A stretch of 51,109 bases of DNA from Saprospiraceae bacterium. GTDB taxonomy: Bacteria; Bacteroidota; Bacteroidia; Chitinophagales; Saprospiraceae. Under the pieces are notes generated by a model. The model ran no database searches and was not told the origin of the DNA. It worked only from the letters and a program-made list of their open reading frames with translations. The stretch lies in the NCBI GenBank assembly GCA_036846745.1, contig DAIUBI010000001.1, forward strand, positions 1 through 51,109. The letters are read 5' to 3'. The position numbers and the translations under genes are program-made. This document shows positions 31,450-50,591 of this stretch, piece after piece (position 1 is the stretch's first letter; each line of letters opens with the position of its first letter).

Positions 31450-31482
31450 AAAATCCCCCGATGATCTTCCAATCATCGGGGG
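31445..31482 (-). terminator. Strong intrinsic terminator closing the giant-protein operon (it may also stop the convergent LuxR-type regulator gene)
   Basis: There is a perfect 11-bp stem, CCCCCGATGAT (31455-31465) pairing with ATCATCGGGGG (31472-31482), with a 6-nt loop. On the minus strand it is followed by ATTTTTTATTTT. It sits 30 nt after the stop of the 2,468-aa gene. Confidence 0.75.
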
Positions 31483-34500: not shown

Positions 34501-37500
34501 GGGGTCACGTCTTTAAGTGTAACGGTAAAAGAGCAATCGCTGGAATTGCCGTTGCCATCATTAGCGGTTAAGGTCACCGTTTCTACGTCATTGTGGCCGC
34601 TCAGCGCAGTTGAAGCCAACGGACTTTGGGTAAAGCTTGGATTGACAGCGCAATTATCGCTTAATGAAGCGGGCGACCAGGAGCCCACAACCCCGTTACA
34701 GTTGGCGTCTGCCGCCACAGTCTGGTTGGGTGGACAACTCAGCAACGGAGGGGTAACATCTTTTAAGGTAAGGGTAAAGTTGCAGGAACTATTGTTACCA
34801 TTGCCATCGTTGGCCGTAAGTGTGATGGTTTCCACATCGTTATGGCCACTCAAAATAGTATTTGCTGCCGGCGTTTGAGTCACTGACGGAGAAGGATTGC
34901 AATTATCACTTACCGACAAGGGAGCCCAGGTGCCCACCTGTCCGCTGCACTGGCCATCTGCGGCCAGAGTTGTATTGGCCGGACAGGTAATAGTTGGAGG
35001 AATGGCATCCGCTACAGATGCTGTTACTGTGGCCGAGTTGACACATCCGTTATCATTAACGGTTACGGAATACGTGCCGCTTGCCGCCGGGGTGGCATTC
35101 GGGATAGTTGGGTTAACAGCGCCTGATGTAAAATTATTAGGCCCAACCCATGAATAGGTTACACCACTGCCACTGGGGCCACCTGAATTCAATTGCAGGG
35201 TAGCGCCGGGGCAAACCGGACTATTGGTTGTAGGTGCAAGTGCCGGACCAAATACGCTTACATTGACCGAAGCAGTTCCTTTGCAATTCTTGGTATCTGT
35301 AACGGTTACCGTATAGATACCTGCGCCGTTCAGGAATACAATAAATGGAGTTGGGTCTTCCATATTAGAAGAATATCCGTTAGGGCCTGACCAGGAGAAT
35401 GCATTATATGGAGGTGATCCAGCATTTGGGGTTGAAGTCAGGACCAATTGATTTCCTGCACAAATCGGACTATTGCTGGCAGCTGAAATGGTTGGAGCAT
35501 TATTGGTTGAAATCGACAAGGTGGTTGAAGATGTTCCGGTGCACCCGGCATTGTCCGTTACTGTAACGGTGTAGGTGCCTGCATGAACCAATGCAATGTT
35601 GTTAATCTTTGGATTCTCTAAGCCAGAAGAAAAACTATTTGGTCCTGCCCAGTTGAAACTGGTATAGTTTCCGGATCCGCCGGATGGATTTGTTTTCAAA
35701 TCCAGGGTTGCACCCAGGCATAGCGGGCCGTTATTGGTGGCCAAGGCAATTGGTTTTGGGTTTACTACCAGGTTAGTAGTGGCAGTAGCGGTGCAGCCTT
35801 TTGAATCGGTCACTTTTACGGTATAAATGCCCGAGGAAGCCACGGTGCCGGTAAATGGAGCAGGATCTTCGGCGGAAGCACCAAAGAAGTCGGGGCCTGT
35901 CCAGCTAAAGGTGTAACCAGGAGTGCCTCCGGAAGGGGAGGAAGTTAACACTACCTGAGCGCCAGAGCAGATAGGGCCGTTATTCTGTGCGGTGATGGAT
36001 GGATTCGGATGAATGGTAACAGAAACACTGGCTGTTGATACACAACCCAATGCATCTGTAACACTCACGGTATAAGTACCCGCAGCCTGCATATTAGCTA
36101 CAAATGGCGCCGGATCTTCTACATTGGCACTATAGTTATTCGGGCCTGCCCACGCAAAAGCAGTATAAGGTAACGCGCCGCCAATTGGAGCAGAGGTAAG
36201 GGTAATCGTTCCGCCATCACAAACTGCTCCGCTTACACTTGCCGTAATCGTTGGACATGCTACCACTGAGACGCTGGTGGTTGCAGTGCTGGTACAACCA
36301 TTGCCATCTGTAAGTGTAACGCTGTAAACGCCGGCTGCTGCCATAGTGGCCGGAAAGCCTGCAGGTTGTGCATCACTAGAACTGTAGCTGTTTGGGCCAG
36401 ACCATACATAGGTGTAGCCAGATCCAGACCCGCCACTTGCAGTTGAACTCAATTGAATGGTTCCTCCCTCACTCACCGGGCTATTGCTTGAAGCGGTGAT
36501 TATTGGAAGGGCATGAACAGTTACCGAGGTGGTATTGGAACCGCTACATCCGGCATTGTCCGTTACGGTAACCGAATAGGTTCCTGCAGCAGCCAGGGTG
36601 GCAATAAATGGCGCCGGGTTTTGACTGGTGGAGCCAAATCTGTTCGGACCAGCCCAAAGGAAAGTGTATCCCTGGCCAGATCCACCGGTTGGGGTACTGT
36701 TCAACGTCAGGTTAGCGCCGGAACAAACAGGACTGTTACTTCCTGCGGTGATGGTAGGCGCCGGGTTGGAGGAAACACTAATGCTGACCGTGCCTGAAGC
36801 AGTACAGCCAGGGGTATCTGTTACTACTACGGTGTAAGTCCCGCCAGAGTTGGCTGTTGCCGGAAAAGCTGTTGGATCTTCCAGATTGGATTGGTAATTA
36901 TCTGGTCCGGTCCAGGAAAAACTTGCATAAGGCGGGGTTCCTCCTGTTGGCGTGGAGTTCAGGGTAATGTTGGAGCCCAGGCATACTACCCCTATATTAC
37001 CGCTGGCGCTAATGGTTGGCGGTGGAGCTATAACTATACTTGCCGTGGCGGTGCAGGAACCCGTGCTGGTTCCGGTTACGGTGTAAGTACCCGGAGTGGT
37101 TACTGTGATTTGGGGTTGCGTAGATCCGGTACTCCAAACATAGCTTACAGCGCCGGAGGCAGTCAGGTTTACGCTTGCATTGGTACAAATCAGATTGGTG
37201 CCTCCATTGATACTTACGGCAAATGGTTCATTGGCCTGATTAGTCACCGTGACAACCAAAGTGATCACATCCGACTGATTTCCTGCATTGGTAACCTTAA
37301 TGTTTACCACATATTGGTTGTTGACATCGGCATCCTGAGGGTTCTCAAAGTCCGGAGAAAAACCTGCAGCCCAACTCAGCACACCATTTTGGGTATTGAT
37401 ACTGAATTTACCTGCGTCAGCGCCACCATCCAGGGCATAAGTGAGGCCGTTACCTTCGCTGTTGTTAGGGTCGGATGTTTGGGTATCATACAGTACATAA

Positions 37501-38918
37501 CAGGCGTTTTCCTCAAAATTCACCGTTGTGGGCGAGGTAATATTAGGCCTGATATCGGTTTGAATGCTAAAAATGACCTGGTGTGTATCTCTGCGGATAT
37601 CCGGATAGTCACAATCAATAGCAATGAAGTCTACCGGAAAATTGCCTGTCCAGCTTGGATCATCAATGCTTACTTGCACCACATTTCCCGGACCAATACT
37701 AGGTACCAAAGGGGAAAGCTGGAGCAGATACGGATTGGAAACTGTACCAATGGAACCACCAGCCACAAAAGTCAGGTTGGAACTTTCTTCATACAGATAT
37801 TGATTGCTGGCATCATAAAACTCAAAACTGATATTTCCAGCTCCTACATTTTTCAGGCTGAGTTGATACGTCACATTGGGAGGTGTTCCAGTGGCTGTTG
37901 CCCAGGCAGCCCGTGTGCCATTTACATAGGCAGCTAATTTGGAGCCTCCGCCGGCCAGTTGAATGTCGACAAACAAGGGCCGTGCAATGATAGTCATGGG
38001 CTGATTTCCAGGCGTAATGGCTGGCCAGGCAGGATCGGGGGTAGTACCATCAAACGGATAAACCGCTAAATCGTATTCAATACAATCACCGTTGAAATTC
38101 AGGTAATCATCCAGATCAAAATCTGTGAAGTCATCCCCCTGGAAAATGGTCTGATCCGGAATGTCTTGCCATTCCGGCGCACCATAATCCGGCAGCACGG
38201 TAAACCACCCTGTGATGGTATCCGCCAATTGGTTTGGTGTGTTTTCCGTGACAATAATGCGTACGGAGTCCGTTCCGATCCATTGATTGGATACTGGCGT
38301 TACGGTCATCACCCCATTTATTAAAGTCACAGTGAGGTTTGGCCCCGGTTGTGCGCTCCAGATAACCGGATCGCCGTCCAGACTGAACAGGTAATCATTC
38401 AGGTCTACGGACTCGAACGGTATGTTTACCAGGGTGGTGTCTGCCAACAAAGGCTCCAGTTCCGGAGGAAAATCAGCATTTGGGTCAATATTGATCCAGA
38501 AAGGCAGCTCAGATGTGCCGATAGAACCATTATGCACAAAGGTGACCTCCTCAAAAGCCGGGTAAATAGCATCATCAGGTTGGTAATACACTTTAAAGTT
38601 CACGGTTTCTCCGAAATACTGATTGGAAAAATACGTGATGAAATAATATGCATCTGCGCCGAAGAAAAGCGGTGTCGCTACCCCTCGCAGTTCATTACCA
38701 ACAAATGCACCAAGCAGATTGCCGGCCTGATTAGCCGGATTGCCCACGTAATTTACCCGGATTACGGCATTCATATTGAATTCGTAATCAGCAGGATCTA
38801 CTGACCAGTTGGGCGGTGGCTGGATGGTTGGATTGGCGTTTGCTGCGTGCACGCACAATATCAGGCATGCGAACAGATAAAACTGAAAACGCCGTTTGGA
38901 AATATATAGCCGATTCAT
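31512..38918 (-). CDS. Giant T9SS cargo protein: unnamed N-terminal module, cadherin-like domain, 9 Ig-like repeats, 7 + 6 HYR-type repeats, type-A C-terminal sorting domain
   Basis: The likely start is ATG 38918 (MNRLYISKRRFQFYLFACLILCVHAANA, a signal peptide); the track start is 38951. A cadherin-like segment is present (LTYALDGGADAGKFSINTQNGVLSW...YVVNIKVTNAGNQSDVITLVVTVTNQANEP). HYR units read DVTPPxIxCPxNxTxxADANCxxxxG...SDNC...GHNDxETVTLTAxDGNGN...C.FTVTLK. The CTD is LNVYPNPTSGALWVDF...GLYLLECTS...KRLLIQH. Confidence 0.92.
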   Translation of the reverse strand: MNRLYISKRRFQFYLFACLILCVHAANANPTIQPPPNWSVDPADYEFNMNAVIRVNYVGNPANQAGNLLGAFVGNELRGVATPLFFGADAYYFITYFSNQYFGETVNFKVYYQPDDAIYPAFEEVTFVHNGSIGTSELPFWINIDPNADFPPELEPLLADTTLVNIPFESVDLNDYLFSLDGDPVIWSAQPGPNLTVTLINGVMTVTPVSNQWIGTDSVRIIVTENTPNQLADTITGWFTVLPDYGAPEWQDIPDQTIFQGDDFTDFDLDDYLNFNGDCIEYDLAVYPFDGTTPDPAWPAITPGNQPMTIIARPLFVDIQLAGGGSKLAAYVNGTRAAWATATGTPPNVTYQLSLKNVGAGNISFEFYDASNQYLYEESSNLTFVAGGSIGTVSNPYLLQLSPLVPSIGPGNVVQVSIDDPSWTGNFPVDFIAIDCDYPDIRRDTHQVIFSIQTDIRPNITSPTTVNFEENACYVLYDTQTSDPNNSEGNGLTYALDGGADAGKFSINTQNGVLSWAAGFSPDFENPQDADVNNQYVVNIKVTNAGNQSDVITLVVTVTNQANEPFAVSINGGTNLICTNASVNLTASGAVSYVWSTGSTQPQITVTTPGTYTVTGTSTGSCTATASIVIAPPPTISASGNIGVVCLGSNITLNSTPTGGTPPYASFSWTGPDNYQSNLEDPTAFPATANSGGTYTVVVTDTPGCTASGTVSISVSSNPAPTITAGSNSPVCSGANLTLNSTPTGGSGQGYTFLWAGPNRFGSTSQNPAPFIATLAAAGTYSVTVTDNAGCSGSNTTSVTVHALPIITASSNSPVSEGGTIQLSSTASGGSGSGYTYVWSGPNSYSSSDAQPAGFPATMAAAGVYSVTLTDGNGCTSTATTSVSVVACPTITASVSGAVCDGGTITLTSAPIGGALPYTAFAWAGPNNYSANVEDPAPFVANMQAAGTYTVSVTDALGCVSTASVSVTIHPNPSITAQNNGPICSGAQVVLTSSPSGGTPGYTFSWTGPDFFGASAEDPAPFTGTVASSGIYTVKVTDSKGCTATATTNLVVNPKPIALATNNGPLCLGATLDLKTNPSGGSGNYTSFNWAGPNSFSSGLENPKINNIALVHAGTYTVTVTDNAGCTGTSSTTLSISTNNAPTISAASNSPICAGNQLVLTSTPNAGSPPYNAFSWSGPNGYSSNMEDPTPFIVFLNGAGIYTVTVTDTKNCKGTASVNVSVFGPALAPTTNSPVCPGATLQLNSGGPSGSGVTYSWVGPNNFTSGAVNPTIPNATPAASGTYSVTVNDNGCVNSATVTASVADAIPPTITCPANTTLAADGQCSGQVGTWAPLSVSDNCNPSPSVTQTPAANTILSGHNDVETITLTANDGNGNNSSCNFTLTLKDVTPPLLSCPPNQTVAADANCNGVVGSWSPASLSDNCAVNPSFTQSPLASTALSGHNDVETVTLTANDGNGNSSDCSFTVTLKDVTPPTIICPGNTTIEADANCNGSLGSYMPTQLADNCAANPSFSQSPAAGTVLSGHNDVETVTLTADDGNGNTNTCNFTVTLKDVTKPTITCPGPQTLNADANCSSLLGTYNPVSVSDNCNANPTVTQSPASTTVLSGHNDTETVTLTADDGNGNTESCSFVVTLKDVTPPSIICPANTTLAADANCSNVVGSWSPVSLSDNCNPNPTVTQSPAANTVLTGHNDVETVTLTANDGNGNSNSCSFTVTLKDVTPPSIVCPPDATVNADANCSGLVGVRNPVSVSDNCNANPTVTQSPVPGTVLIGHNDFEVVTLTANDGNGNTASCSLTVTLKDVTKPTITCPPNVTLNADANCSSLLGAYSAVSVSDNCNPNPTVTQSPAASTVLSGHNDVEVVTLTADDGNGNTQFCTFTVTLKDVTPPVVVCKPFTAALNAAGMVTVLPSDVYGSGSDNCGVVNLVSVVPNTFNCSQLGANVVVLTVNDGNGNTSSCNATVTVVDQIPPTMMCKNHTVALNAAGSASVSTADINNGSTDNCTLTNLSLTPNFFTCSNLGANTVTLTGTDQSGNTATCQATVTVIDNIPPTMLCRNATLNLNAQGQATLTVADVNNGSFDNCTIVVFNLSKTQFTCADIGDNTVTLSGRDQSNNAGSCTAIVTVRDLILPVALCKNTIANLGANGTVTVAPSAINNGSSDNCSFTLSLAPNTFNCNQLGVNVVTLTVTDAGGNTRTCTARVTVRDVTAPTALCKNITIFLNDVGKKSINAIDLDNGSTDNCSISTRSLLQTDYNCSDIGAPVNNLLTVKDPSGNTSTCSALVTVKDNIAPTPICKNTVVTLGSNGNVTVYPSILADSSFDNCSVTGYLPAAKTYNSAGIYNLVITVSDWSGNTATCVSVVTVNQNSPVRDEEDSIVNVTNSESDALQLNVYPNPTSGALWVDFELPDEQMFRLNIHDITGRLILEEHRTGLKGRNSMYLDVRKVPSGLYLLECTSAPLRSVKRLLIQH
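31833..33266 (-). repeat. Six tandem ~80-codon HYR-like units (second subtype) within the giant gene
   Basis: Each unit has the pattern D-x-[IT]-[PA]-P-T-x-x-C-[KR]-N...N-[NG]-GS-x-DNC...[NT]-C-x-x-[LI]-G-x-N...T-[VG]-x-D-x-[SAG]-GN-T-x-[ST]-C-x-A-x-VTV. I located the boundaries on the DNA. Confidence 0.85.
33267..35009 (-). repeat. Seven tandem HYR units of exactly 83 codons (249 bp) each
   Basis: The first Asp codon of unit 1 is at 35007-35009, and the first Asp codon of the next repeat class is at 33264-33266. The span is 1,743 nt, which equals 7 x 249 with no indels between units. Confidence 0.9.
35010..37223 (-). repeat. Nine tandem ~80-codon Ig-like units (x-C-x-G-x-x-[ILV]-x-L-x-S-x-P-x-GG...Y-x-[FW]-x-W-x-GP-[ND]...G-x-Y-x-V-x-V-T-D-x-x-GC)
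   Basis: I read the units from the translation. Their cores are LICTNASVNL, VVCLGSNITL, PVCSGANLTL, PVSEGGTIQL, AVCDGGTITL, PICSGAQVVL, PLCLGATLDL, PICAGNQLVL and PVCPGATLQL. Confidence 0.8.
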
Positions 38919-38937
38919 TGTTGTTAAGTTTAAGGTC

Positions 38938-41900
38938 TTATTGCAAAACAATTTTCTTCACGACACTTCCCGATTCTGTTTGTAGCCGAACAAAGTACAC
39001 GCCTTTTGCCAGCGCTGCGCCTTGTTCAGACTGTGCCTTCCAGGAAAGGGAGTTGATACCCTCTTTGCCTGAGGTATTGATTTCAGCCACTTGTTTACCG
39101 CTCATGTCTGTAACGGTAATGCGCAAGTCCTGACTTTTTAGCAACGCAAATCGTAAAGTAGTTTCCTGCTGGAACGGATTGGGTTGCACATCAAAAGATT
39201 GGACAGCCGAGATTTCCTCGGTGCCGCTGCTCAGTAATGTGAAGGGCAACGGAGCATCTATGCTTCCCTGATGCCATTCGGGCGAGAAGAACATGACTTC
39301 CTTGAGTTCCTGAATACCGCCGGTGCTGCTGTCAAACAATTGATAGCGGATCTGCTCCCCGGCTGAGTTGGCATATACCGTAAGGAAGAACAGATAAGAT
39401 TGCAGAGGTGGAATATAAATGGCTGTGGAAGAGCCCCGTACCTGAGCGTTGGCAAATGCGCCAAGTTCCATGGTAGCAGTCGTTGCATTTTGCTCATTCA
39501 CCTTCAACATACCTATCAGCGTCATGCTATGCTCAAACTGCGTCGGATCTACGGTCCAGAAGTTTTGACCGGGTGCTTCACCTGGCCCCCGGTCTCCGCT
39601 TCCAGGTTTGCCTTTATAATCAGCTCCTCCATTCGTTAATTGGCTGGACAATGGAGGATAGATCAATGTGCCAGGTGCAGAAACCTTCAGTTGATATCCA
39701 TTTGGTGGACTCATGTACCCCAGGTTTCCGATCCAGCCAAATGTTGGGTTGATATATTGAGCAAAAGAAATTTGGCTCTTAATCAAATCACCTGTTTGGG
39801 CAGATACAGACGACAAGGCTTCATTTACCGGAAGTGAGTAGTTTGGAATATAGCTGATCCAGTTCCAGCCTGGTACCACTTGTATAGGTGTATTTGCCGG
39901 ATCCAGAACACTTCCCTGCATCATAAGGGTATCAGCGATATTAGCCCTGTAGACATACATGGATGTGTTTCCAAGGTTTTGCAGTGTGCCCAACCAGCCG
40001 CCACCATTAAAATAGGTAGAGAACTGGTTTTGACTCTTCATCAAATCGTTCTGCGGATGACTTAAAGATGCCAGGGCCTCATTGATGTCTGAGTCAGGGA
40101 AACCGAGGTTGAAGGAAAGCCAGTTCCATCCAAAGCCGAGAGGCACTTCCCGAAGTACTAAGTTGAAGGTGTGAATCACCTGTGGGTTCAATGGATCGCC
40201 TATAACATCATCCGGTTGGAATAAGAAATCATCCTCCAATACAGCATAACGAAGACAGGCAGATGCGTCCCAGATTTCTAACCGAATTGGTTGTAGCACA
40301 TGGTTCGGATTGCCGTAAATGGTCAGGTATGCTAAGTATTTATTCACCTGAGGTACATACTGAACATTGGCCCGACCTACTAAGGTGTCGCCGATGAAAG
40401 CTACTACCATGTCTTCCACATCGGTAGAAACCTCACCCTCAATATTCAGTTCGAGCACCAAATTTTCGGTGTTTTCATACAGACTGCCATTGATTTCCCA
40501 GGCTGGTGGCCGACAAACAACGCGTACGCCGAACGGAAGACGTTCGTCTCCACCCATAAAGAATGGATTTTGGCCAATCTCGGTGTGAAGTGTGATGGAA
40601 TCACTCCAAAGTCCAAAGGCCAGGTTAGAATCAACGGTAAAACTGATAGGTCTGATTTCATTTGGGGCCAATGTGCCCTGTGTAGGCACCACGTGCACAT
40701 ACGTAGGTATATCCTCTATGGTAAAGGGTACCGGATACCCGCCGCGATTATGGATGCTGGCCGTTATGGTTTTGGTTTGATCTTCATATTTAGTCATACC
40801 AATACTGTCGGTCAGCCAGGCCAGCTCATTGCGGTCTACATAAAATTCCCACTGTTCATAGACCAGCTTGTTGCCGGTTTTATCCTCAATATCATGCAGT
40901 TCTGCGCGCAGGATACGATTTTCGAAGAATTTATTCTGGAAGGTAGGATCCAGAATAATCTTGTTTTCGTAACACGTAATGTTGATGTCCAGTAGCTGGT
41001 TGGTGGTAGCGTCGAACAATTGAACATTGTCAACCGCATTGATTTTAGCGCAGTTGATGGCTTTGTTGAAGGAGAAGGAGATCTCGTCGCCCACGTTGTA
41101 TACACCATCAGCTGGCTCCGGCACGCCAATCAGACTTGGCGGCTGACGTTCAATGCGACCAGTGATGATGTGAGATATGCCAGGTTTGTCTAAAAGATCT
41201 CCTGTACATACCGCGATTGCCCGAATTTCATAAGGCCCGTCAGCGAGGCCTACAGTATTCCAGAAGAATTGGGTAAAAACAGAGCCTAAGTTAGTCTTCA
41301 GTATCTCCGCTCCTGGTTGTATCAAATTAATCAGGGAGTCATCCGGTGGTACGATATTAATCCAGGCTCCATCGCCGTCGGAAGGCCGGTATTGAACCCT
41401 GATTTTTTCAAATTCCTGCACAGATTTATCATACCCTGAGACGGTGATACGCATAACGTCATCAGGCCCCTGGGTGATCGGATCAGGGAATATTACCCAG
41501 TTTTGTTGAGGTGCATTGATGTCTACCTCACTGCAGGGCTTAATGAAATGTGCGCTCAGATAAACACTGGAATAGGCAATCGTATCTGCGCTCGACTGTA
41601 ATCCCAGTAATCCTGCCCGATCATCTTCGCACTCGCTGTAAAAGGCAATTTCCAGACTGTCGTAGTCGTATTTTTCCGGACCCCGTTCTATCGTAAGGGT
41701 AATGGGCACAGAGGTTCCGTATTCAATCTGATATCCAATCGGGCCATCCAGTACTGCACCATTAAGCCTGATCACAGCTCCATCAGGATTACTATTTACC
41801 CCGGCGTTTATTACGTAGGTTCGGGTTTCATTGGTTTCACTTTGATTACCAAGTACCAGTTTGTAAACGGCAGCATCATTGGATGGGATATCCACTGCAA

Positions 41901-44900
41901 CCGGTCCACTTCCATCTCTGAAGGTAATGCCTGTGCCGTCACGGTGAGCTGTATTGGGCTCCCACGGACAACTGGACTGACCTGTTACGGTGTTAAATAC
42001 CGGAGTATTATAAATGGTATCCATGGCAACATCCACTGTAAAGGCGTCGCCAGGGTCATTATCAGAAAGGACATATCCGGTGGTAATACCTTGGGAGGTT
42101 CCATTTTCGGTAGTCTTGCTGGTGGTTTTGCTTGTGCCAGTATTAATGGTTACACCCCCGCCGGCACCCTGAATAAAAATTTGAATATCAAATGCGAAAT
42201 TGAAATCGCTGGTATTTTCCACTGAAGTGATGCTGGTAGCACTGGTGTCGCTGGTTTCGGAGTATTCATAAGAAACTCCAGATTCAAAGGACACATTTCG
42301 CAAAAATTTGGCCGACTCCTTTTGTTGCTCATTGTTGGCCAAAATAGCATTCCAAAGGTTTATGGAATTGAGACAGGTGTCTCGTTTTTCCGGTGTAGTA
42401 TTCGGATCATCAGCAATGGCCTGAAGGTACTTGATGGTATAGTTTCGGATGTAGTTATCCGAATACATATAGGTGGTACCAAAGTTTTTAGGCGCCACAG
42501 AAATAACGGTTTCTACCGCGCCACCACAAAGCAAGGTGTCGAAACTTACTTTATCAGAGAACCCAAACTCAACATTCAGGCCTGATCCAACGAATACATC
42601 TCCACCCTGTACAATACCTTGCCCCGGAACATTCACTGCAGGCCCAACAATGTTTTCTTCAGCACTGGTGGAAATGGTTTCACTAAAGCTGCTGCAAACC
42701 TGCAAGCTGTTCTCTGAGGACTTTGTGACCGTATTGGAAGTGGTAATGGTTGGGCCGATATTGAATTCGGTGGTCAAAACGATCCCAAAGACCAAAAATT
42801 CAAAATCTGGCACAAAGTCGATAACCACATCAAGGCCGTTCGTTTCTGATGTGTCTCCTGCAAAGGATACGGTTTGGCAAACGCTCTGGTTTTTTTCAAA
42901 ATAAGCATAGCTGCCGTCGCCTGGCGGATCGCGAAGTACCAGCGAAGGCGTAGCAGGGAGTTGTGTGGTAAAGGTGCTGGATTTGGAGAACAGGCCCGTC
43001 ACCAATGCCTGCCGAATCTCCGTAGATTCGTTTCCGCTGATGGAGGAGCCTACAATTTGGATGGTTTGCAGGAATGGCGGGCTTGGATTGGGCACCTTTG
43101 CTCTGAATTTGTAAAAAAGAATGGAACTGCTCAGAACAGTATCCTTTACCTCACCTGAAATTTCATTGATGATGCGAATATTGCCGGTATCCAATAAACA
43201 GGCTTCGCCGAGATAATATTCTTTTAAGGAAATCCCCAGGGTGTAAGACTTGCCTTGTTCAAATACCACAGTCTGGCAAGTTGGACTGTATGGATCCATG
43301 CCACTTACGATTTCCACCTGTGGTGGTGCGTAGTAAATAAAGTCAACAATGGTGTCGACTTTTCTCAAATCTACCTGCTTACCGCCTAAAACCTGAAAAG
43401 CCGTTTTAATGGTTGGGTCTGAGTGTTCCACCACCGCAATGGTCATTTCAATGGGCGGGAGATTGGCAAATTCATATTCGCCTTCTATATTGTCAATTTC
43501 AATGATGCGTTCAAAGCAATCATCAATCGAGCGAACTTTTACGATACACACCGTACCACTTGGCGTTCCCGGATTACTGATAATGGGTAATTTACAATCA
43601 CCTCCGGCTACAAAACCACTGATTTTCCTGGTGGTAATGTCATTAAATACAATTCCCGCAATTGGGCTGGTGAGGTTGGTTACCTGCCAGGTAGCCGGGA
43701 AAAATTCATGGTCTTCAAAGACCGGCTTCAGGGTAACGGTAGCTCCAGGCTCCAGGTCAATGATGAATTTGCCGGTGGAGTCGGTAAAAATCCGTGGAAC
43801 AAACGATTCATTATTGACCAGGATTTCAACATTTTTGGCGAAACAATCCGTATTTTGGTATCGCACAAATCCTGTAACCGGAATGGTAGACCGATCTGTA
43901 AAATCTACCTGGTCAACTGAAGTGACACTGGGATTTAAGGTTACCTGTCGGGTAGAAGGCGCAAACTCATGAGGCGTTGTAGATTGGTTAGGCGCCATAG
44001 TCGTCCATTCCGTTTGGAAGGTGGTTCCCTGTTGAGTTAGCAGTAAGGACCCCGAGTTGGTAAGCACGGATCCTGTCCCCTCATCCATGGCAAAATATAT
44101 ACGCAGCCCTGCTTCCTGTGGATCTCTGGAGGCAGCGGCATGAGCTGAAATGAGCGCGGGAGTTAGGATGTTACCATATACTGCCACCTCGTCAATCAGC
44201 CCACCATAAAAATCAACGAAATCAGTGCCTGATTTCCTCGCACCCAGTACCCAGGGTTCTGCAGGCTCTTCCCAGGTTCCGGTGTAGGCCGGCATCATAA
44301 CGGTTCCCAGCAGGGTGCCATTCTTATAGCCTGTTACCTGTGTGCCGGCTCCTGTGCTATCAATGGTGAAAGCCAAGTGGTGATACCCAAGCCCTAATGG
44401 CCCGAAATCATGTACCTGGTTGTTCAGCTTGAAGATAATATGGTTATTTATACCATTTGCCTGCAGTTGAAGCTGAAAACTGTTGCTTCCGTTCCATCTT
44501 TTGGATAATACCGTTTGGATACCGTCAGGGCCGGCGCTATTAATCCAGGTTTCCAGTGTTGTTTGTGATGTTAAGGGAAAATCTGGCAGCGTGGCATAGT
44601 CCATCTCCTGCCGGTTGAATTTAAGGGCGCGGTGCTTGTAGAAGAACTTTTCCGGCTTTGCCAGGAAAGTAATGCCGGTGCCATAGTTGGCAGATTCAAT
44701 TCTGTAATAGCCATCCTCGTTTGTTTTGCCTGAGGTGCGAACCGGAGGCCGGTCAGCATCGAAAATGGCGCCGCAAAAGAAGAACCGATTGCGCTGCAAG
44801 AGGTCAAAGGATTTGGAGCCTTTTTCCTCGTCCATTTTCCAATAGTATTTTAATCCCGGTGTAAGGGTGGAAGCGGTGCCCTCCATCACCTCTGCCAGAT

Positions 44901-45999
44901 CCAGCTCATTTAAACTTTTGTGGTAAATTCTTAATTCATCCAGTCTGCCAACCCAGGGGGTACTGCCGCTAATGCGTTTGCCTACACGCAGCGAAGTAGT
45001 ATTCAGAATTGCAGTGCCATTTTTTTGATCCTTAAGAACACCATCTAAATATAACCGATAAGCGCCGGAGCTATAACTGAGGCTAATGTGGTGCCATCCA
45101 TTTGGATTTGCATCAAAACTGCCGGTGAGATTGGCCGTTCCAGCCAACATCTGCACGCCACCGCTGTTCAGAGATTTGACTACCAATCCTTGATTCACTC
45201 CATTGGGCGTAATATCCAACATCGTCGGATTGTTTAAAGCCTCTGTGTTTTTGATCCAGTAGCACAGGGTCCAATCTGTATCTGTGGTAGGCAGAAAATT
45301 TTCGTTGGTAGATGAATCCGGCTCGGCATAGGCTCCGTCATGGGGGCCAAAGTAAGCCGAAAAGCCCTGCATGGGCATGAGCGTAACGAGGGCATCCGGC
45401 ACCGGACTATCATTTATGGTACGCACCCATCCCGTTACTACACCGTTTGGAACCTGAAACCCTAGTGCTTTACCAGGAGATCCTTCACCATAGGCATTTA
45501 TTCCTCTCACTTCGTATAGATAGGGTCGTCCTGCAATCACATTAAAATCGTTGTAATTGCGGGTACTCTTGTCTACCTGTGCGAGATAAACCCCGTCGCG
45601 GTATATTTTGAACCCTCCGACAGCGAAAGGGCCAAGTGGATTTGGCCCCCAGGAAATCTGGATGCGATCCAGCAATTCTCCCTGACTGGCGGTTACAAAA
45701 GGAGGGAAAGGCGCCACCAGAAAGCCTGACCAATAGCCAAACTCCATATTGTAATCATCTCCCAAAGCAGAACCCACCACCAATTGTCCAACGGTGAGTT
45801 TCATGCGACGGCTGGTGTTTTTCATCCGTACTCCATTGCCGTAATTAATGAAGGCGGAACGTACCATAGTGTCCTGAACGGCTGCCGAAAAACACCCGGG
45901 ATCCCATGGCTGGCTGGGTTGCTGGGCCCATATCCCTTCCAGGCCAAAGGAAAGACACATCAGTACGGCGAATAGCCGACTAAAAAATATATGTTTCAT
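38938..45999 (-). CDS. Giant (2,353 aa) T9SS cargo protein: FN3-like domain, two LamG/ConA-like domains, large unassigned core, two copies of the module shared with the downstream giant, type-A C-terminal sorting domain
   Basis: The signal peptide is MKHIFFSRLFAVLMCLSFGLEGIWAQ. An FN3-like segment is present (IQISWGPNP...FKIYRDG...YLYEVRGINAYGEG). LamG signatures are WHHISLSYSSGAYRLYLDG...GRLDELRIYHKSL (about 44900-45330) and HHLAFTID...GYKNGTL...GGLIDEVAVYGNIL (about 44150-44600). The CTD is FDVQPNPFQQETTLRF...KGVYFVRLQTESGSVVKKIVLQ. Confidence 0.9.
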   Translation of the reverse strand: MKHIFFSRLFAVLMCLSFGLEGIWAQQPSQPWDPGCFSAAVQDTMVRSAFINYGNGVRMKNTSRRMKLTVGQLVVGSALGDDYNMEFGYWSGFLVAPFPPFVTASQGELLDRIQISWGPNPLGPFAVGGFKIYRDGVYLAQVDKSTRNYNDFNVIAGRPYLYEVRGINAYGEGSPGKALGFQVPNGVVTGWVRTINDSPVPDALVTLMPMQGFSAYFGPHDGAYAEPDSSTNENFLPTTDTDWTLCYWIKNTEALNNPTMLDITPNGVNQGLVVKSLNSGGVQMLAGTANLTGSFDANPNGWHHISLSYSSGAYRLYLDGVLKDQKNGTAILNTTSLRVGKRISGSTPWVGRLDELRIYHKSLNELDLAEVMEGTASTLTPGLKYYWKMDEEKGSKSFDLLQRNRFFFCGAIFDADRPPVRTSGKTNEDGYYRIESANYGTGITFLAKPEKFFYKHRALKFNRQEMDYATLPDFPLTSQTTLETWINSAGPDGIQTVLSKRWNGSNSFQLQLQANGINNHIIFKLNNQVHDFGPLGLGYHHLAFTIDSTGAGTQVTGYKNGTLLGTVMMPAYTGTWEEPAEPWVLGARKSGTDFVDFYGGLIDEVAVYGNILTPALISAHAAASRDPQEAGLRIYFAMDEGTGSVLTNSGSLLLTQQGTTFQTEWTTMAPNQSTTPHEFAPSTRQVTLNPSVTSVDQVDFTDRSTIPVTGFVRYQNTDCFAKNVEILVNNESFVPRIFTDSTGKFIIDLEPGATVTLKPVFEDHEFFPATWQVTNLTSPIAGIVFNDITTRKISGFVAGGDCKLPIISNPGTPSGTVCIVKVRSIDDCFERIIEIDNIEGEYEFANLPPIEMTIAVVEHSDPTIKTAFQVLGGKQVDLRKVDTIVDFIYYAPPQVEIVSGMDPYSPTCQTVVFEQGKSYTLGISLKEYYLGEACLLDTGNIRIINEISGEVKDTVLSSSILFYKFRAKVPNPSPPFLQTIQIVGSSISGNESTEIRQALVTGLFSKSSTFTTQLPATPSLVLRDPPGDGSYAYFEKNQSVCQTVSFAGDTSETNGLDVVIDFVPDFEFLVFGIVLTTEFNIGPTITTSNTVTKSSENSLQVCSSFSETISTSAEENIVGPAVNVPGQGIVQGGDVFVGSGLNVEFGFSDKVSFDTLLCGGAVETVISVAPKNFGTTYMYSDNYIRNYTIKYLQAIADDPNTTPEKRDTCLNSINLWNAILANNEQQKESAKFLRNVSFESGVSYEYSETSDTSATSITSVENTSDFNFAFDIQIFIQGAGGGVTINTGTSKTTSKTTENGTSQGITTGYVLSDNDPGDAFTVDVAMDTIYNTPVFNTVTGQSSCPWEPNTAHRDGTGITFRDGSGPVAVDIPSNDAAVYKLVLGNQSETNETRTYVINAGVNSNPDGAVIRLNGAVLDGPIGYQIEYGTSVPITLTIERGPEKYDYDSLEIAFYSECEDDRAGLLGLQSSADTIAYSSVYLSAHFIKPCSEVDINAPQQNWVIFPDPITQGPDDVMRITVSGYDKSVQEFEKIRVQYRPSDGDGAWINIVPPDDSLINLIQPGAEILKTNLGSVFTQFFWNTVGLADGPYEIRAIAVCTGDLLDKPGISHIITGRIERQPPSLIGVPEPADGVYNVGDEISFSFNKAINCAKINAVDNVQLFDATTNQLLDINITCYENKIILDPTFQNKFFENRILRAELHDIEDKTGNKLVYEQWEFYVDRNELAWLTDSIGMTKYEDQTKTITASIHNRGGYPVPFTIEDIPTYVHVVPTQGTLAPNEIRPISFTVDSNLAFGLWSDSITLHTEIGQNPFFMGGDERLPFGVRVVCRPPAWEINGSLYENTENLVLELNIEGEVSTDVEDMVVAFIGDTLVGRANVQYVPQVNKYLAYLTIYGNPNHVLQPIRLEIWDASACLRYAVLEDDFLFQPDDVIGDPLNPQVIHTFNLVLREVPLGFGWNWLSFNLGFPDSDINEALASLSHPQNDLMKSQNQFSTYFNGGGWLGTLQNLGNTSMYVYRANIADTLMMQGSVLDPANTPIQVVPGWNWISYIPNYSLPVNEALSSVSAQTGDLIKSQISFAQYINPTFGWIGNLGYMSPPNGYQLKVSAPGTLIYPPLSSQLTNGGADYKGKPGSGDRGPGEAPGQNFWTVDPTQFEHSMTLIGMLKVNEQNATTATMELGAFANAQVRGSSTAIYIPPLQSYLFFLTVYANSAGEQIRYQLFDSSTGGIQELKEVMFFSPEWHQGSIDAPLPFTLLSSGTEEISAVQSFDVQPNPFQQETTLRFALLKSQDLRITVTDMSGKQVAEINTSGKEGINSLSWKAQSEQGAALAKGVYFVRLQTESGSVVKKIVLQ

Positions 46000-46053: not shown

Positions 46054-47631
46054 CTATTTCCCGGTACTCGAGGACTCTAATGCCTGAATTCGTCTTAACA
46101 GATTTTCCAATTGACCGGAAAAAGCGTTTTGTTGCTTGCTCAAATCAGCATTGGCAGTTTGCAAACTGCTGTTTTGAGCTTTCAATCCGTTGTTTTCAGC
46201 TTGTAGAGCAGCAATTTCTGCCTTCATTTTTTCAATTTCCAATTCATGATCTTTCACTACCTCATTAAGGTAAATGGAAACTTTTTTATAGTTAACCCCC
46301 GTGATTTCGCCACTTCCATTGTAGTGTACCAATCTGGTCAGACCTATACTGTCGAACTCTTCAGCAATGTAACCAAGCTCTACACGCTCATCAGGATAGC
46401 CAATACGATTGTATAATTTCGGTTGAGCCTTTAAGATTAGCCTGTAGTTGTCGGTAAGCGGATTAATGTTGCGTTTGAGGCGGCGACTGGAGTTGTCGAC
46501 TTGCAAGTGTCCTGTTTGTTCATCCCATTCTACTTCAGGATTGTCCGGACCTTTTTGAATGCCATAAAGTTTAATAGCAGAAAGAGTATTGCAACATTGA
46601 TTGGTATATCCTTGTGGAGGAGAGAATTCTGCTACAACTGAACCGTTAGATCTGATTTGCACAATACCGTCCTGCTTTCCAAATAATCCCGAATCAGTAT
46701 CGTCAATGCCACCTTGCAGCGTATAATTGAAGGTAAAACCAGAATTGTCGAACCAGCTCGCAGCCCTGTTAAATCCTTTGGTAAAGGAGCTGCCGTTGAC
46801 AGTCTGATTGGCCCCGATGGTAGAAAATCCGGTAACTTCCTGATTAGCATTAATTTTTGAAAACCCATTGACAGTATGCCAACCCTGTACGGTTTGGTGT
46901 AATGAAATGTTAGAGCTGCCGTTTATCTGCTGGTTGCCATTTATCGTTAAATCATTGCTGATAAACGGGCCAAAGTTGACTGTTTGACCATAAAGTTCAT
47001 TCTGAGCGTTGTTTAATTGCATTCTTTCTTGTCCGCCAGCCCACAATTCAATGTTATTTGCCCCTCTGGAGAACATGCCCCCTCCTTCATCACCACCTGG
47101 TTTAAATGAAAACCCATTTCCGTCTGGTCCCTGGCCACCGATGGGGTCGCCGCCTCTTGCCCGAAAAGCATCACCAATAACCGGTCCTGTGCTCGGGAAA
47201 GTATTGTTCTGGCCAACCAATCCCAATGCATATGGTGCATGGGTAAGACGCGGACGTGGAAGTAGCTCAATGGAGGAAGTGCCTACACTTACCCCAAGCC
47301 AATATGTTTTGTTAAAAGCAGCATTAAGTGGCTGTGTATCATCAAGCCCCAGTACCACACTGTAGACCCCGCCTACAACGGTAATGTTCTCAATAAGCTC
47401 CTGGTGTACCTTATGTATATTGTCTGTGCTGGATGCATCATCCCACAAACGAAAGGTGAGTTTATAATCATTCCCATCATCTACAGCTGTGCCGTCTGAT
47501 TTGGTTAATACTCCCTGTACAGAGAGCGTTGCTTTGTTGGCCTGTGCAAAAGCTACAGAGGCTGTTCCCAGCAAGGCAAATAGGAGAAGAAAATGCTTTA
47601 GGCTGATAAAGGAGTAAAAAACGCTTTTCAT
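46054..47631 (-). CDS. Secreted tail-fibre-like protein with C-terminal intramolecular-chaperone auto-processing (Peptidase S74-type) domain and terminal coiled coil
   Basis: The signal peptide is MKSVFYSFISLKHFLLLFALLGTASVAFAQ. The central part has degenerate N/Q/G-rich short repeats. The C-terminal 145 aa (46057-46491) read SSRRLKRNINPL...ELGYIAEEFDSIGLTRLV...GVNYKKVSIYLNEVVKDHELEIEKMKAEIAALQAEN. That matches the S/D-x-R-x-K-x-N-I ... GFIAQE ... V.Y..L pattern of tail-spike/endosialidase chaperone domains. Confidence 0.82.
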   Translation of the reverse strand: MKSVFYSFISLKHFLLLFALLGTASVAFAQANKATLSVQGVLTKSDGTAVDDGNDYKLTFRLWDDASSTDNIHKVHQELIENITVVGGVYSVVLGLDDTQPLNAAFNKTYWLGVSVGTSSIELLPRPRLTHAPYALGLVGQNNTFPSTGPVIGDAFRARGGDPIGGQGPDGNGFSFKPGGDEGGGMFSRGANNIELWAGGQERMQLNNAQNELYGQTVNFGPFISNDLTINGNQQINGSSNISLHQTVQGWHTVNGFSKINANQEVTGFSTIGANQTVNGSSFTKGFNRAASWFDNSGFTFNYTLQGGIDDTDSGLFGKQDGIVQIRSNGSVVAEFSPPQGYTNQCCNTLSAIKLYGIQKGPDNPEVEWDEQTGHLQVDNSSRRLKRNINPLTDNYRLILKAQPKLYNRIGYPDERVELGYIAEEFDSIGLTRLVHYNGSGEITGVNYKKVSIYLNEVVKDHELEIEKMKAEIAALQAENNGLKAQNSSLQTANADLSKQQNAFSGQLENLLRRIQALESSSTGK

Positions 47632-47794
47632 GATGTGAGGAAATTAATTTGTGCAATGAAATAACCTGCCCAACGCACCAGGCGTCAGGGTTTACGGGAT
47701 GCCAGCAAGGTAAGCAGGATATACTAAGAAAGTTGTAATGGAATCAGGGAAGCACAAGTTTTTACCAGTAAGGCCCTTTAAAATTTCAGGGAAG

Positions 47795-48157
47795 CTAATG
47801 GCCTCTTACTTCAAACCAATGTCCCAGGTGATCTTTAAGTTGTACACGTGTAAATGGCTTATTCAAAACCGGGAAGGAAAATGCCTTGTTTACAGGGGGG
47901 GCAGCGGCTCCCGTGATGAAAAAAACCGGGATGCAGAAGGTGTTTTGAAGTTGTGCGCCAAAGGCCCAGCCATCCCAGCCAGTCGGGCTTTTGACGTTCA
48001 TAATCAAGCCTTTAGGACTTTTTTTCAGACATAGCTCTGTTAGCTGATCCATTTATGTTACATCAATAACTTCCATATGCAGTTATTCCAGATGCCATCG
48101 TACATCCAGCGCTATGACCGGATCATCTTCTGCCAGTAATACAACAGGGCGCAACAT
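47795..48157 (-). pseudogene. Stand-alone CheY-like receiver (REC) gene interrupted by two in-frame TAA codons
   Basis: My codon-by-codon reverse-complement translation from ATG 48157 (preceded by GGAGGTGAA) gives MLRPVVLLAEDDPVIALDVRWHLE*LHMEVIDVT*MDQLTELCLKKSPKGLIMNVKSPTGWDGW...IPVFFITGAAAP...NKPFTRVQL. This is a full-length 118-residue REC in a single frame. The stop codons lie at 48083-48085 and 48053-48055. The track shows only the last 85 codons (47795-48052). Confidence 0.75.
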
Positions 48158-48267: not shown

Positions 48268-49854
48268 TTAATGGAGAGCCAAATCAAACAAGATCTCCGT
48301 GGCATATCCATTTTCATCAGCCTTCACTTCCACCTTTCCTTTCCATTTATTGCTGAGCATTTTGATAAGTCTGGAGCCAAATCCGGTGCCAGTGTTTGGT
48401 GTCCCGGACGTTCCTACACCATTGTCGGATACCCGAAGGTACAATTTCCTGTTTTCGGTTTTATGCAGCTCAATGTTGATTTGCCCTTTTCGCCCGCCAG
48501 GAAACGCGTATTTCAAAGAATTGGCAAGTAATTCGTTGACAATCAGGCCAATAGGTATGGCTGTGTCAACATCCAACTCCAACTTGTTTTGGGGATAACG
48601 TATTTCCACGCTGCCATCATCTAAGCCAAATGAATCAAGCATGGTTCGCCCAAACTGTTCAAGGTAATCTTTCATTTCCACCTGTGCCACGTTGGCGCCC
48701 AGGTACAGTTTCTGGTGGATCAAGCCCATGGCATCCACCCGGTTTTGACCCTCCCGGATGGCGTCTAGCGCTGCGTCATCCTTAACCTGGCGGGATTGCA
48801 GATGCAGAAGACTGGAGAGTATTTGCAGGTTATTTTTTACCCTGTGGTGTACTTCTTTAATCAAAAACTCTTTTTCCCTATTGCGCTTTTTCAGGCTTCT
48901 GACCAGGATAAATAACACCACGCCAACAGCCAGCGCAAATGCCAATCCTCCCAGTAATAATTGTTGTTTCAAGTGTTCTGTTTCCAGTTGTTTTGCCTGA
49001 GTAGCTATTTGGGTTTCTTTTTTCTCGTTTTCATACTGTGCCTTCAAAGCTTCTACCTCCTGTAGTCTTTCCTTGGCCATGAGGGTGTCCTGATAGTATT
49101 CCATGTAGCTCCATAATGCAGCATAGGATTTTTCGTGATTGCCCAAAGCAGCTTCAATCATGGCTCTGTATTTGAGCGCCGCGGAATACTCTAAAGATCT
49201 GCCGTGTTTTTGAGATAATGCAATAACAATATCGTTGTGAAACCTGGCTTTTGATGGATTATCGAGGTACAGGTAATTGCCTGTCAGGTAGATATTGGCG
49301 GTTAGATAGGCAAAGTCATCCTTCTTGTTCAACGCAGCCTGATAATAATCCAGATAGTAACGATTTGCGCCTTGATAATCGCCTTTCACCTCCACTACGT
49401 TTCCAATTTTCGCCATGGCATTTGCGGCACCCATGGTATCCCTGATTGCCAAATAAGTGGCAACTGCGGTTTTTAGTATTTGAATGGACGTGTCCAGTTG
49501 ATTTTCTTTAATGAAATATATCCCTTTTCGGAATAAGATCCTGGCTACGTTTAGTGTGTCCTGGCAGGCACGGCAAAGTTTTTCACCTTTTTCAATAGAG
49601 ATAGCAAGTGCTGGCTGATTTTCTGTTACAATGGCAAGCTTACTCAACAACATTTGAACTTTGCATTGCAATTCCAGATTATTCTCCTGTTCAGCTAATT
49701 TTTGTGCCTGAACGAGATGATAAACTGCACTGTCCCAATTTCCTCTTTCTACATATTTATAACCATTATTGTATGATTCTTTCAAGTCGTCAGACTGTGC
49801 AAATCCATTACCGGAGATCAAGATGCAGATGAAAACAAAAAGAAGGTGTTTCAT
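48268..49854 (-). CDS. TPR-repeat sensor histidine kinase (signal peptide, extracytoplasmic TPRs, coiled coil, one TM, HisKA_2 + HATPase_c)
   Basis: The signal peptide is MKHLLFVFICILISGNGFAQ. Multiple TPR-like helices follow, then a TM segment (LLLGGLAFALAVGVVLFILV). The H-box is EVHHRVKNNLQILSSLLHLQ (HisKA_2 type). The ATPase motifs are NELLANSLKYAF, SDNGVG and GFGSRLI. Confidence 0.9.
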   Translation of the reverse strand: MKHLLFVFICILISGNGFAQSDDLKESYNNGYKYVERGNWDSAVYHLVQAQKLAEQENNLELQCKVQMLLSKLAIVTENQPALAISIEKGEKLCRACQDTLNVARILFRKGIYFIKENQLDTSIQILKTAVATYLAIRDTMGAANAMAKIGNVVEVKGDYQGANRYYLDYYQAALNKKDDFAYLTANIYLTGNYLYLDNPSKARFHNDIVIALSQKHGRSLEYSAALKYRAMIEAALGNHEKSYAALWSYMEYYQDTLMAKERLQEVEALKAQYENEKKETQIATQAKQLETEHLKQQLLLGGLAFALAVGVVLFILVRSLKKRNREKEFLIKEVHHRVKNNLQILSSLLHLQSRQVKDDAALDAIREGQNRVDAMGLIHQKLYLGANVAQVEMKDYLEQFGRTMLDSFGLDDGSVEIRYPQNKLELDVDTAIPIGLIVNELLANSLKYAFPGGRKGQINIELHKTENRKLYLRVSDNGVGTSGTPNTGTGFGSRLIKMLSNKWKGKVEVKADENGYATEILFDLALH

Positions 49855-50591
49855 ATTTTTATGAGCCAGGCTGTTAGCTCCTCTTTTGCCGATTTACTGA
49901 TGGGAATTTGTTTTTTATGGATTACCACAAAGAGGTCGCCAATTTCTTCTATGTGGTTGCTGTTGACAATATATGACCTGTGTATCCTCAAAAAGCCGGG
50001 AACCACTGCCAACGTTTCTCCCAATTGTTTTAAGGTTTGTGTGATGAGATACTCTTTATCGAGGGTAATTAATCTGCAGTAGTAATCATCTGCTTCGATC
50101 CAGAGGATATCTGCCAGAAAAATCCGGATCATCCGGTCTTTGAATTTGATGAAAACTCTGTCGCCGAACCAATTGCTTGAACCTATTTCTACTTTTGTTT
50201 CAGGAATATCAGGTTCGGGCTCACTTCTGGAAATCGCCAGTTCAATACTATGCTGCAGATCTTTTCCACGGAAGGGCTTCGTCAGGAAAGCTGCAGGGTG
50301 AGTTTTTTTTGCCCTTGCAAAGGTCAGCGGATCAGCGTTGCTGGTTAGAAATACCAGGGGAACCGACCTGATCTCCTGTATTTTATACGCAGTTTCCACG
50401 CCATCCATTTGGCCAGACAACTGAATGTCCATCAGAACAATATCCACATTGTTCATACTGAACCACTCCACAGCCTCTTCTCCATAACTGAAAGGTCCGG
50501 CGGTTTCATAGCCCATTTCATGGAGCCGATCCTCCAAATCAGCTGCAATGATAGGCTCGTCTTCTATGATTAAAACAGATATTTTTTTCAC
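49851..50591 (-). CDS. LytR/AlgR (LytTR) family response regulator
   Basis: The REC domain reads ISVLIIEDEP, phospho-acceptor in IVLMDIQLSG, LVFLTS and LTKPF. The C-terminal LytTR domain reads IFIKFKDRMIRIFLADILWIEADDYYCRLIT...FLRIHRSYIVN. Its TGA overlaps the kinase ATG (ATGA, 49851-49854). Confidence 0.92.
   Translation of the reverse strand: MKKISVLIIEDEPIIAADLEDRLHEMGYETAGPFSYGEEAVEWFSMNNVDIVLMDIQLSGQMDGVETAYKIQEIRSVPLVFLTSNADPLTFARAKKTHPAAFLTKPFRGKDLQHSIELAISRSEPEPDIPETKVEIGSSNWFGDRVFIKFKDRMIRIFLADILWIEADDYYCRLITLDKEYLITQTLKQLGETLAVVPGFLRIHRSYIVNSNHIEEIGDLFVVIHKKQIPISKSAKEELTAWLIKI

Follow-up and report, generated by a model that had tools for sequence, protein, structure and literature searches.

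A Sec-exported S74 fibre gene in a conserved cellular gene cluster of Saprospiraceae encodes a putative homotrimeric fibre of the MAT type

The stretch analysed here (the window; 51,109 nt, positions 1 to 51,109 of contig DAIUBI010000001.1, assembly GCA_036846745.1, Saprospiraceae bacterium, a freshwater member of Saprospirales) carries on its minus strand, at 46054-47631, a gene whose product resembles a phage tail fibre and ends with an S74 intramolecular chaperone domain and a coiled coil. Unlike phage fibres, it starts with a Sec signal peptide. The locus raises the question of whether such a fibre belongs to a phage particle or to the cell and, if to the cell, what it does there. The initial annotation, made from the sequence alone, had described a Sec-secreted cellular gene with no prophage context and had left open how a trimeric fibre would reach the surface. 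Our analysis suggested that the product is a homotrimeric fibre of the mosaic adhesive trimer (MAT) type which belongs to the cell and is exported by Sec, with a role in regulated adhesion together with two giant proteins encoded downstream. From sequence comparison and structure models, the probability of this reading was put at about 0.7.

Architecture of the fibre protein

The fibre open reading frame (ORF) and its parts, all on the minus strand, were as follows.

46054-47631, minus strand: fibre gene, product of 525 aa (ORF list and translation)
47545-47631, minus strand: signal peptide, aa 1-29, with a predicted signal peptidase I cut A-F-A / Q30 (sequence features)
47212-47544, minus strand: MAT_N-like beta-sandwich N-domain, aa 30-140 (weak NCBIfam match, AlphaFold2 (AF2) model, structure matches)
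47032-47211, minus strand: conserved Gly-rich linker and first strands, aa 141-200, where the part that is constant between strains ends (alignment, sister-strain contig)
46762-46950, minus strand: hexapeptide-repeat shaft, aa 228-290, predicted triple beta-helix (autocorrelation, trimer model)
46492-46761, minus strand: variable tip, aa 291-380, with the motif D-x-D-S-G-L-F ... D-G-I-V-Q-I (alignment with the S16 gp37 tip)
46267-46491, minus strand: S74 intramolecular chaperone core, aa 381-455, with a predicted self-cleavage site (PF13884, invariant residues)
46069-46266, minus strand: C-terminal coiled coil, aa 456-521, within the fragment predicted to be released (helix prediction, trimer model, family conservation)

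The signal peptide consisted of a basic n-region, a hydrophobic core and A-F-A followed by Gln30, and these features bore out the export signal described earlier. In the alignment of 46 full-length homologues, on which all statements of invariance are based, Gln30 was invariant, which fits the Bacteroidetes Q-rule described for signal peptidase I sites (PMC5837995). Metagenome-assembled genomes (MAGs) of Saprospiraceae and Lewinellaceae yielded more than 100 full-length homologues. The family alignment showed a conserved N-part (aa 30-200), a variable middle and a conserved C-terminus. The tip was the least conserved stretch of the family and aligned with the distal tip of phage S16 gp37; searches with Pfam, NCBIfam and PHROG profiles found no enzymatic domain in it (aa 291-380).

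S74 chaperone domain and predicted self-cleavage

A hidden Markov model (HMM) search, which had been proposed as a check, matched Peptidase_S74 (PF13884) to aa 381-431 at 27.5 bits, above the cut-off of 22, and a genome-wide search placed the domain at 46336-46491 with 31.6 bits. PHROG tail-fibre and tail families matched aa ~202-489 (E 3e-13 and 2e-10), and the fibre-family profile matched the tip and chaperone of phage S16 gp37 (6f45; E 1.7e-5). Ser381, Arg383 and Lys386 were invariant, with the Lys, the predicted base, five residues after the Ser. The HMM matches and the invariant Ser/Lys dyad together supported the description of a protein that resembles a tail fibre and carries an S74 chaperone.

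Self-cleavage at the Ser of the Ser/Lys dyad is established for phage S74 proteins, as cited in PMC10769870, and was shown for Bd3182 of Bdellovibrio, at S782 of 922 aa (PMC10769870). In the present protein, the corresponding C-terminal fragment (aa 381-525, 145 aa) had a computed mass of 16.3 kDa, in agreement with the earlier estimate of ~16 kDa, and the mature chain left after cleavage was predicted at 37.5 kDa. The fragments of Bd3182 and of the fibre would be of like size (S782/922 vs S381/525). The Asp of the S-D-x-x-x-K consensus, which is the motif of MAT fibres with S74 such as Bd3182, was replaced by Ser (Thr in a few members) throughout the fibre subfamily, giving the motif S-S-R-R-x-K, and the four other S74 proteins of the genome keep S-D.

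Shaft, coiled coil and trimer model

Some 11 hexads with the pattern x-x-[IV]-x-G-x made up residues 228-290. BLOSUM autocorrelation gave z = 4.7, 5.5, 6.5 and 5.1 at lags 6, 12, 18 and 24, and values of 0.2 or less at the other lags tested, so that the short degenerate repeats noticed in the centre of the protein were confirmed as hexads with a period of six. Repeats of the triple-beta-helix type also occur in phage fibres.

The model of the fibre showed a single helix at 448-521, and the alignment showed that the coiled coil was conserved across the fibre family. The coiled coil had previously been called an extra element, unusual compared with phage examples; its presence was borne out, and it was extra only in part, as the PHROG profiles reach ~485-489 and the extension beyond them comprised about the last 40 residues. 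The S74 paralogues of the genome had tails of roughly 28-55 aa. Matches of the coiled coil to ZapB, GpsB, the CpoB trimerisation domain and Lpp were below their cut-offs and covered the coiled coil only; they were rejected as composition effects.

The three-chain prediction that had been suggested was run with aa 216-525, and it passed with a score of 0.86 (best of three controls 0.00); since S74 trimers have already been solved, this pass may reflect memory, and it shows likeness rather than binding by this copy. Of 30 proteins solved as pairs of one chain, 20 attained the pass mark, and of 23 solved as single chains, one did. At least 93% of contacts agreed between the runs, with a predicted local distance difference test (pLDDT) value of 87 or more for the partner chains. 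Inter-chain contacts in the model were shifted by 6 residues over 229-292, and a/d-type heptad contacts were present in the tail from 452 to 515. The S74 chaperone is thus predicted, on the basis of this model, to drive homotrimerisation of the preceding beta-helix. A Foldseek search of the full monomer model against the PDB gave nothing at E <= 0.001 and returned generic beta-sandwiches only.

The N-domain and kinship to MAT fibres

MAT fibres of Bdellovibrio bacteriovorus are surface adhesins that have a signal peptide, a beta-rich N-domain of ~130 aa and a trimeric fibre, with S74 in 13 of 21 (Caulton et al. 2024, PMC10769870). The N-domain model of that group, NCBIfam NF053851 (Bdello_MAT_N), matched the N-domain of the fibre at E 0.002 and 18 bits, under the cut-off of 60 bits. 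Among the 46 homologues, 41 matched at E <= 0.01 (best 6e-6), all under the same cut-off. NF053851 is a model of the Bdellovibrio subfamily and its cut-off was missed; the protein is therefore called MAT-like and not a member of that subfamily.

The AF2 model of the N-domain had a core pLDDT above 90. Structure matches (template modelling score 0.63-0.74) were obtained with N-domains of predicted proteins from Bacteroidota, Myxococcota and Verrucomicrobiota that carry S74, Collar, Fibrinogen_C or YadA_head tips. A VIA-align comparison of the N-domain with 48,161 chains gave a best Z of 6.9, to chains like immunoglobulin and FN3 domains and within the stated background of the tool, and thus no specific solved relative.

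The S74 subgroup of MAT fibres, represented by Bd3182, and the fibre have in common a signal peptide, a conserved beta-rich N-domain directly after it, a trimeric beta-helical fibre (predicted for the present protein) and an S74 domain with a Ser/Lys dyad. Both are also mosaic, with exchangeable distal parts on a constant N-domain. The fibre is about half the length of Bd3182, its host is a Bacteroidota member with a system for type IX secretion (T9SS), and its gene, unlike those of Bdellovibrio MAT fibres, is fixed in a predicted operon with a Laminin_G_3 (LamG) giant, probably under a LytTR two-component system. Table S3 of PMC10769870 already includes members from Saprospiraceae and Dokdonia. 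The self-cleaving phage-type fibre as a cellular gene is accordingly already known, and the present protein is a further MAT-like case. The picture of a tail-fibre-like protein encoded by the cell was upheld by HMM matches, the invariant dyad, the conserved signal peptide and synteny; as an unprecedented case it fell, as Bdellovibrio MAT fibres have the same plan.

With the phage K1F endosialidase, the T5 L-shaped fibre pb1 and S16/T2 gp37 (6f45), the protein shares a homologous tip and chaperone module; it differs from phage fibres in that it lacks a virion-attachment domain and lies in a cellular operon. Several homologues bear the NCBI name "tail fiber domain-containing protein", which is an annotation label only. 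A Tannerella protein of that name is present in an outer-membrane-vesicle proteome, as given in PMC10682907. A divergent N-domain and the fixed presence of LamG as a neighbour distinguish the fibre subfamily from other Bacteroidota proteins with this label.

Cellular context of the gene

Pfam searches of all window ORFs of at least 150 aa and of the remaining 6.6 kb of the 57.7-kb contig revealed no phage families. The families found were those of housekeeping enzymes, SusC/SusD, transporters, two-component systems and T9SS cargo. No capsid, terminase, tail, baseplate or integrase genes were present in the orthologous loci inspected either, and the fibre gene adjoined cellular genes in more than 40 loci from different MAGs. 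The absence of a prophage context, noticed in the window alone, was therefore extended to the rest of the contig, where a degraded prophage had been named as a possible objection, and to the orthologous loci. The Sec signal peptide, being conserved, also speaks against a fibre that is assembled on a particle in the cytoplasm.

In view of this, the reading in which the gene stems from a prophage, tailocin or contractile injection system, as its remnant or moron, and encodes the true tail fibre of a virion or particle is scarcely credible: the PHROG tail-fibre matches, the S16 gp37 homology and a sub-threshold sheath-like ORF on another contig (C307) could be cited for it, but such a signal peptide is incompatible with particle assembly in the cytoplasm, the contig holds no phage families, and the same cellular neighbours recur from MAG to MAG.

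A conserved gene cluster with LamG and HYR giants

The genes on either side of the fibre gene in the window were as follows.

49851-50591, minus strand: response regulator with a LytTR DNA-binding domain (Pfam), conserved upstream of the fibre gene
48268-49854, minus strand: TPR / HisKA_2 histidine kinase (Pfam), upstream of the fibre gene in most orthologous loci
47795-48157, minus strand: receiver-like gene with two in-frame TAA (codons 25 and 35), intact in sister strain L081 and in other orthologous loci
38938-45999, minus strand: LamG giant of 2,353 aa with a type-A T9SS C-terminal domain (Pfam), 54 nt downstream of the fibre gene
31512-38951, minus strand: HYR/Ig giant of 2,479 aa with a T9SS C-terminal domain (Pfam), overlapping the end of the LamG gene

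Comparison of seven homologous loci (36-75% identity) showed the same order, namely LytTR regulator, TPR/HisKA_2 kinase, small receiver-like protein, fibre, Laminin_G_3 T9SS protein of ~2,350 aa and, usually, the HYR giant. The HYR giant lay downstream in many, not all, orthologous loci. A scan of species genomes yielded 58 loci, 57 of them from MAGs; nearly all were labelled Saprospiraceae, Lewinellaceae, Saprospirales or Bacteroidota, and one was labelled Chlorobiota. All loci matching the N-part of the fibre held a LamG orthologue (49-77% identity), which lay immediately downstream in nearly all of them; in L025, L051, L053 and L054 it lay a few kb away or on the other side of the fibre. 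The LamG orthologue was also present in seven loci that share only the N-part of the fibre and have an unrelated distal part, and loci matching only the S74 part had no LamG giant.

Among 100 sampled genera of the family, the N-domain occurred in 5 and the LamG giant in 7, and 7 of 7 fibre copies adjoined a LamG gene. The module is thus patchy but tightly linked. The same-genus genome G008 gave scattered matches at ~65% DNA identity and was too diverged for the borders of a cluster insertion to be set.

The receiver-like gene has TAA at codons 25 and 35, where the sister strain has TCC (Ser) and GAT (Asp) and an intact gene of 120 aa. All receiver-like orthologues, the intact ones included, had Asn at the position of the phospho-acceptor Asp.

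A second LamG giant was seen upstream of the cluster in L017 (1-5362) and L025 (15-6314), and several MAGs contained two or three fibre-LamG pairs on separate contigs. The GhpA grappling hook of Aureispira, a heptameric T9SS substrate of 5,898 aa with PorP/PorE-like partners, was considered as a possible relative of the giants.

Exchange of the distal cassette in a sister strain

Sister strain L081 was found in an independent freshwater metagenome. Its proteins shared 94% (regulator), 99.6% (kinase), 91% (receiver-like) and 91% (LamG, even over 1,997 aa) identity with those of the window. The fibre was 90-100% identical over aa 1-200 and 26-56% identical over aa 201-525, with 26-40% in the tip, and the DNA match to the L081 contig at 90% or more stopped at about nt 47036 (aa ~198). 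The constant aa 1-200 and the replaced aa 201-525 indicate that shaft, tip and chaperone were exchanged as a unit on a constant base. Cassette exchange on a constant base is the pattern of receptor-binding proteins.

Predicted operon and candidate operator

Two further features on the minus strand bear on the expression of the cluster.

47744-47794, minus strand: candidate LytTR operator formed by two exact copies of CTTCCCTGA in direct orientation (47786-47794 and 47744-47752), spaced 42 nt (sequence)
31455-31482, minus strand: intrinsic terminator shortly after the HYR gene, stronger than any other in the region (12-bp stem, 7 G-C pairs, T tail)

The 54 nt that separate the fibre gene from the LamG gene contained no terminator-like site. 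The sole strong terminator lies after the HYR gene, and fibre, LamG and HYR are therefore read as one operon. An 8-bp stem-loop with a T-rich stretch was observed in the leader at window positions 47669-47689 (minus strand), ~40 nt before the fibre start, and was identical in the sister strain.

The CTTCCCTGA repeats lie 120 and 162 nt before the start codon of the fibre gene. TTCCCTGA direct repeats stood upstream of the fibre gene with a spacing of exactly 21 or 42 nt. When the 8-mer was sought with up to one mismatch in the upstream regions of 21 orthologues, it matched 32 times; shuffled sequences gave 2.6 +/- 1.6 matches, and the reverse strand had 1. Twelve of the 21 regions showed spacings of 21 or 42 nt, and one further region had 25 and then 21 nt. 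In most loci the repeats lay upstream of TAnnTTTG-type boxes. In L035, L038 and L040, which have enough flanking sequence and lack the two-component system, the repeats were likewise missing.

ComE sites consist of 9-bp direct repeats with a 12-mer linker (PMC4005675). The LytTR promoters of ComE and AgrA and the fibre promoter are alike in having direct repeats of ~9 bp with a 21-bp periodicity just upstream of the promoter. The repeat TTCCCTGA itself is unrelated to the Firmicutes ComE/AgrA sites, and here two or three repeats occur, at 21 or 42 nt. The 21-nt-phased TTCCCTGA repeats are likely, judging from their sequence and placement, to be the operator of the adjacent LytTR two-component system.

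Proposed role of the fibre and its alternatives

Taken together, the features above suggest the following course. The precursor would be exported by Sec and cut before Gln30, as its conserved sequence features predict. The C-terminal 145 residues (S74 and coiled coil) would align three chains and template the triple beta-helix and the tip, according to the homology and the trimer model. The Ser381/Lys386 dyad, to judge from its invariance, would then cut before Ser381 and free the 16.3-kDa fragment; what remains would be the mature chain of 37.5 kDa, its tip exposed. The N-part (aa 30-200), which is conserved, would hold the fibre at the cell envelope, and the distal part would serve as a specificity cassette, whose exchange is shown by the strain comparison. 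From sequence and synteny, the fibre gene appears to be the first in an operon with the LamG and HYR T9SS cargo, under a promoter preceded by the TTCCCTGA repeats. Acting with the LamG and HYR giants, the fibre probably serves in regulated adhesion, be it to other cells or to surfaces.

Several points weigh against this reading. The S74 score of the fibre was low compared with the 54-65 bits of the other S74 proteins of the genome, and the N-domain score was far under the NCBIfam cut-off (18 vs 60 bits). With Ser or Thr in place of the Asp after the nucleophile, cleavage is not certain from the sequence. A fibre trimer with no T9SS tag, lipid anchor or barrel could stay in the periplasm. The distribution is patchy, as the N-domain occurred in 5 of 100 sampled genera and was not found in the same-genus genome. 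Finally, the two stops in the receiver-like gene and an imperfect -7 promoter box mean that the locus may be less active in this strain.

The first alternative is that the fibre is not an adhesin of its own and serves as a structural or assembly subunit of the LamG giant, such as a trimeric base, a tether or a periplasmic scaffold. It would account for the presence of the LamG giant in every locus that keeps the fibre N-domain, for the joint conservation of the constant N-part and LamG while the distal part varies, and for the lack of an export signal beyond Sec. This alternative was judged unlikely, however, since the hypervariability of the distal cassette between sister strains is the pattern of outward-facing recognition and not of an internal scaffold, and since MAT fibres, whose architecture is the same, are surface adhesins.

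A second alternative, that the fibre is released as a soluble trimeric lectin, depolymerase or bacteriocin-like agent, appeared quite improbable. Tailspike enzymes do occur among the phage relatives, the tip is variable and no anchor was recognised; but the tip yielded no enzymatic domain, the N-domain is common to surface-held MAT fibres, which favours attachment, and the gene is predicted to be co-transcribed with those of surface proteins.

What is new here is the fixed cluster with the LamG giant, the 21/42-nt TTCCCTGA repeats and the distal swap in the sister strain. Work on MAT fibres has, to our knowledge, so far been confined to Bdellovibrio. That a cell encodes a self-cleaving fibre of the phage type will surprise a specialist only mildly. 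At 525 aa the present protein is a compact member, and it comes with the LamG T9SS cargo as a clear genetic partner, with a candidate regulator and candidate operator, and with natural variants that differ in the distal cassette only. Its display, control and recognition thereby become open to direct tests, in bacteria that occur commonly in fresh water and wastewater plants.

Possible route to the surface

The lack of a T9SS C-terminal domain on the fibre had been noticed from the sequence alone, and the profile searches agreed: there was no Por_Secre_tail or CHU_C match at E <= 1, neither type A (PF18962) nor type B (PF13585) could be assigned, and the C-terminus is coiled coil. The genome encodes SprA and is rich in T9SS cargo, with at least 150 ORFs above the Por_Secre_tail cut-off and 393 first-pass candidates in 5.3 Mb. 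T9SS neighbours of the S74 paralogues were dropped as evidence in view of these numbers.

Three proteins of 166-168 aa in the genome (mini-proteins) carried little more than one short module between the signal peptide and the T9SS C-terminal domain, and each was encoded directly upstream of another fibre with a MAT_N-type N-domain. Three of three distant homologues of the mini-proteins were likewise encoded directly upstream of a fibre, in one case a non-S74 fibre. Comparison of the LamG N-terminus with the mini-protein module by hhalign gave a probability of 74% (E 2.7e-5). A plain HMM of the LamG N-terminal motif did not find the mini-proteins among all genome ORFs, so that only profile-profile comparison links the two; this negative result counts against a common docking module.

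A tentative and on balance doubtful idea, drawn from these sequence comparisons, is that the MAT_N-type N-domain docks on a "T-I-G-[EQ] ... G-[FY]" module of T9SS cargo, which would supply the missing sorting domain. The fibre might then be carried through SprA with its partner or be tethered to the partner on the surface. The partner could be the LamG giant at the present locus and a mini-protein of 166-168 aa at the other MAT_N fibre loci of the genome. The idea is supported in that N-part and LamG stay conserved together where the tip has been exchanged, and it is weakened by the high frequency of T9SS cargo genes in the genome.

Related genes elsewhere in the genome

One mini-protein gene (166 aa, with a T9SS domain) lies on the same contig outside the window, at 56091-56591 of contig C1 (L012:5092-5592). 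A second MAT_N-type fibre gene follows it after 24 nt (56615-57689; L012:5616-6689) and is cut by the contig end. The pair of mini-protein and MAT_N fibre recurs on contigs C53 and C274 and in three other MAGs.

The genome contains four S74 ORFs besides the fibre and five proteins in total with a MAT_N-type N-domain; three of the four S74 ORFs have this N-domain. Two fibres combine a MAT_N-type N-domain, collagen triple-helix repeats and S74 (L013, contig C180, 8386-10518, minus strand; L015, contig C274, 2955-4811, plus strand), and they resemble a collagen-like Saprospiraceae protein of 704 aa in Table S3 of PMC10769870.

On contig C307, an ORF of 537 aa gave a sub-threshold match to the contractile phage sheath family at 4566-4823 (minus strand; 23.5 bits, cut-off 31.4); it could be part of some contractile injection or type VI-like system in another region of the genome. 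An S74 protein of 752 aa lacks MAT_N (L014, contig C259, 3159-6897, minus strand); it and the adjoining FG-GAP protein share the N-terminal motif V-G-I-N-x-x-G-A-T-P-H-P-S-A-M-L-E-V.

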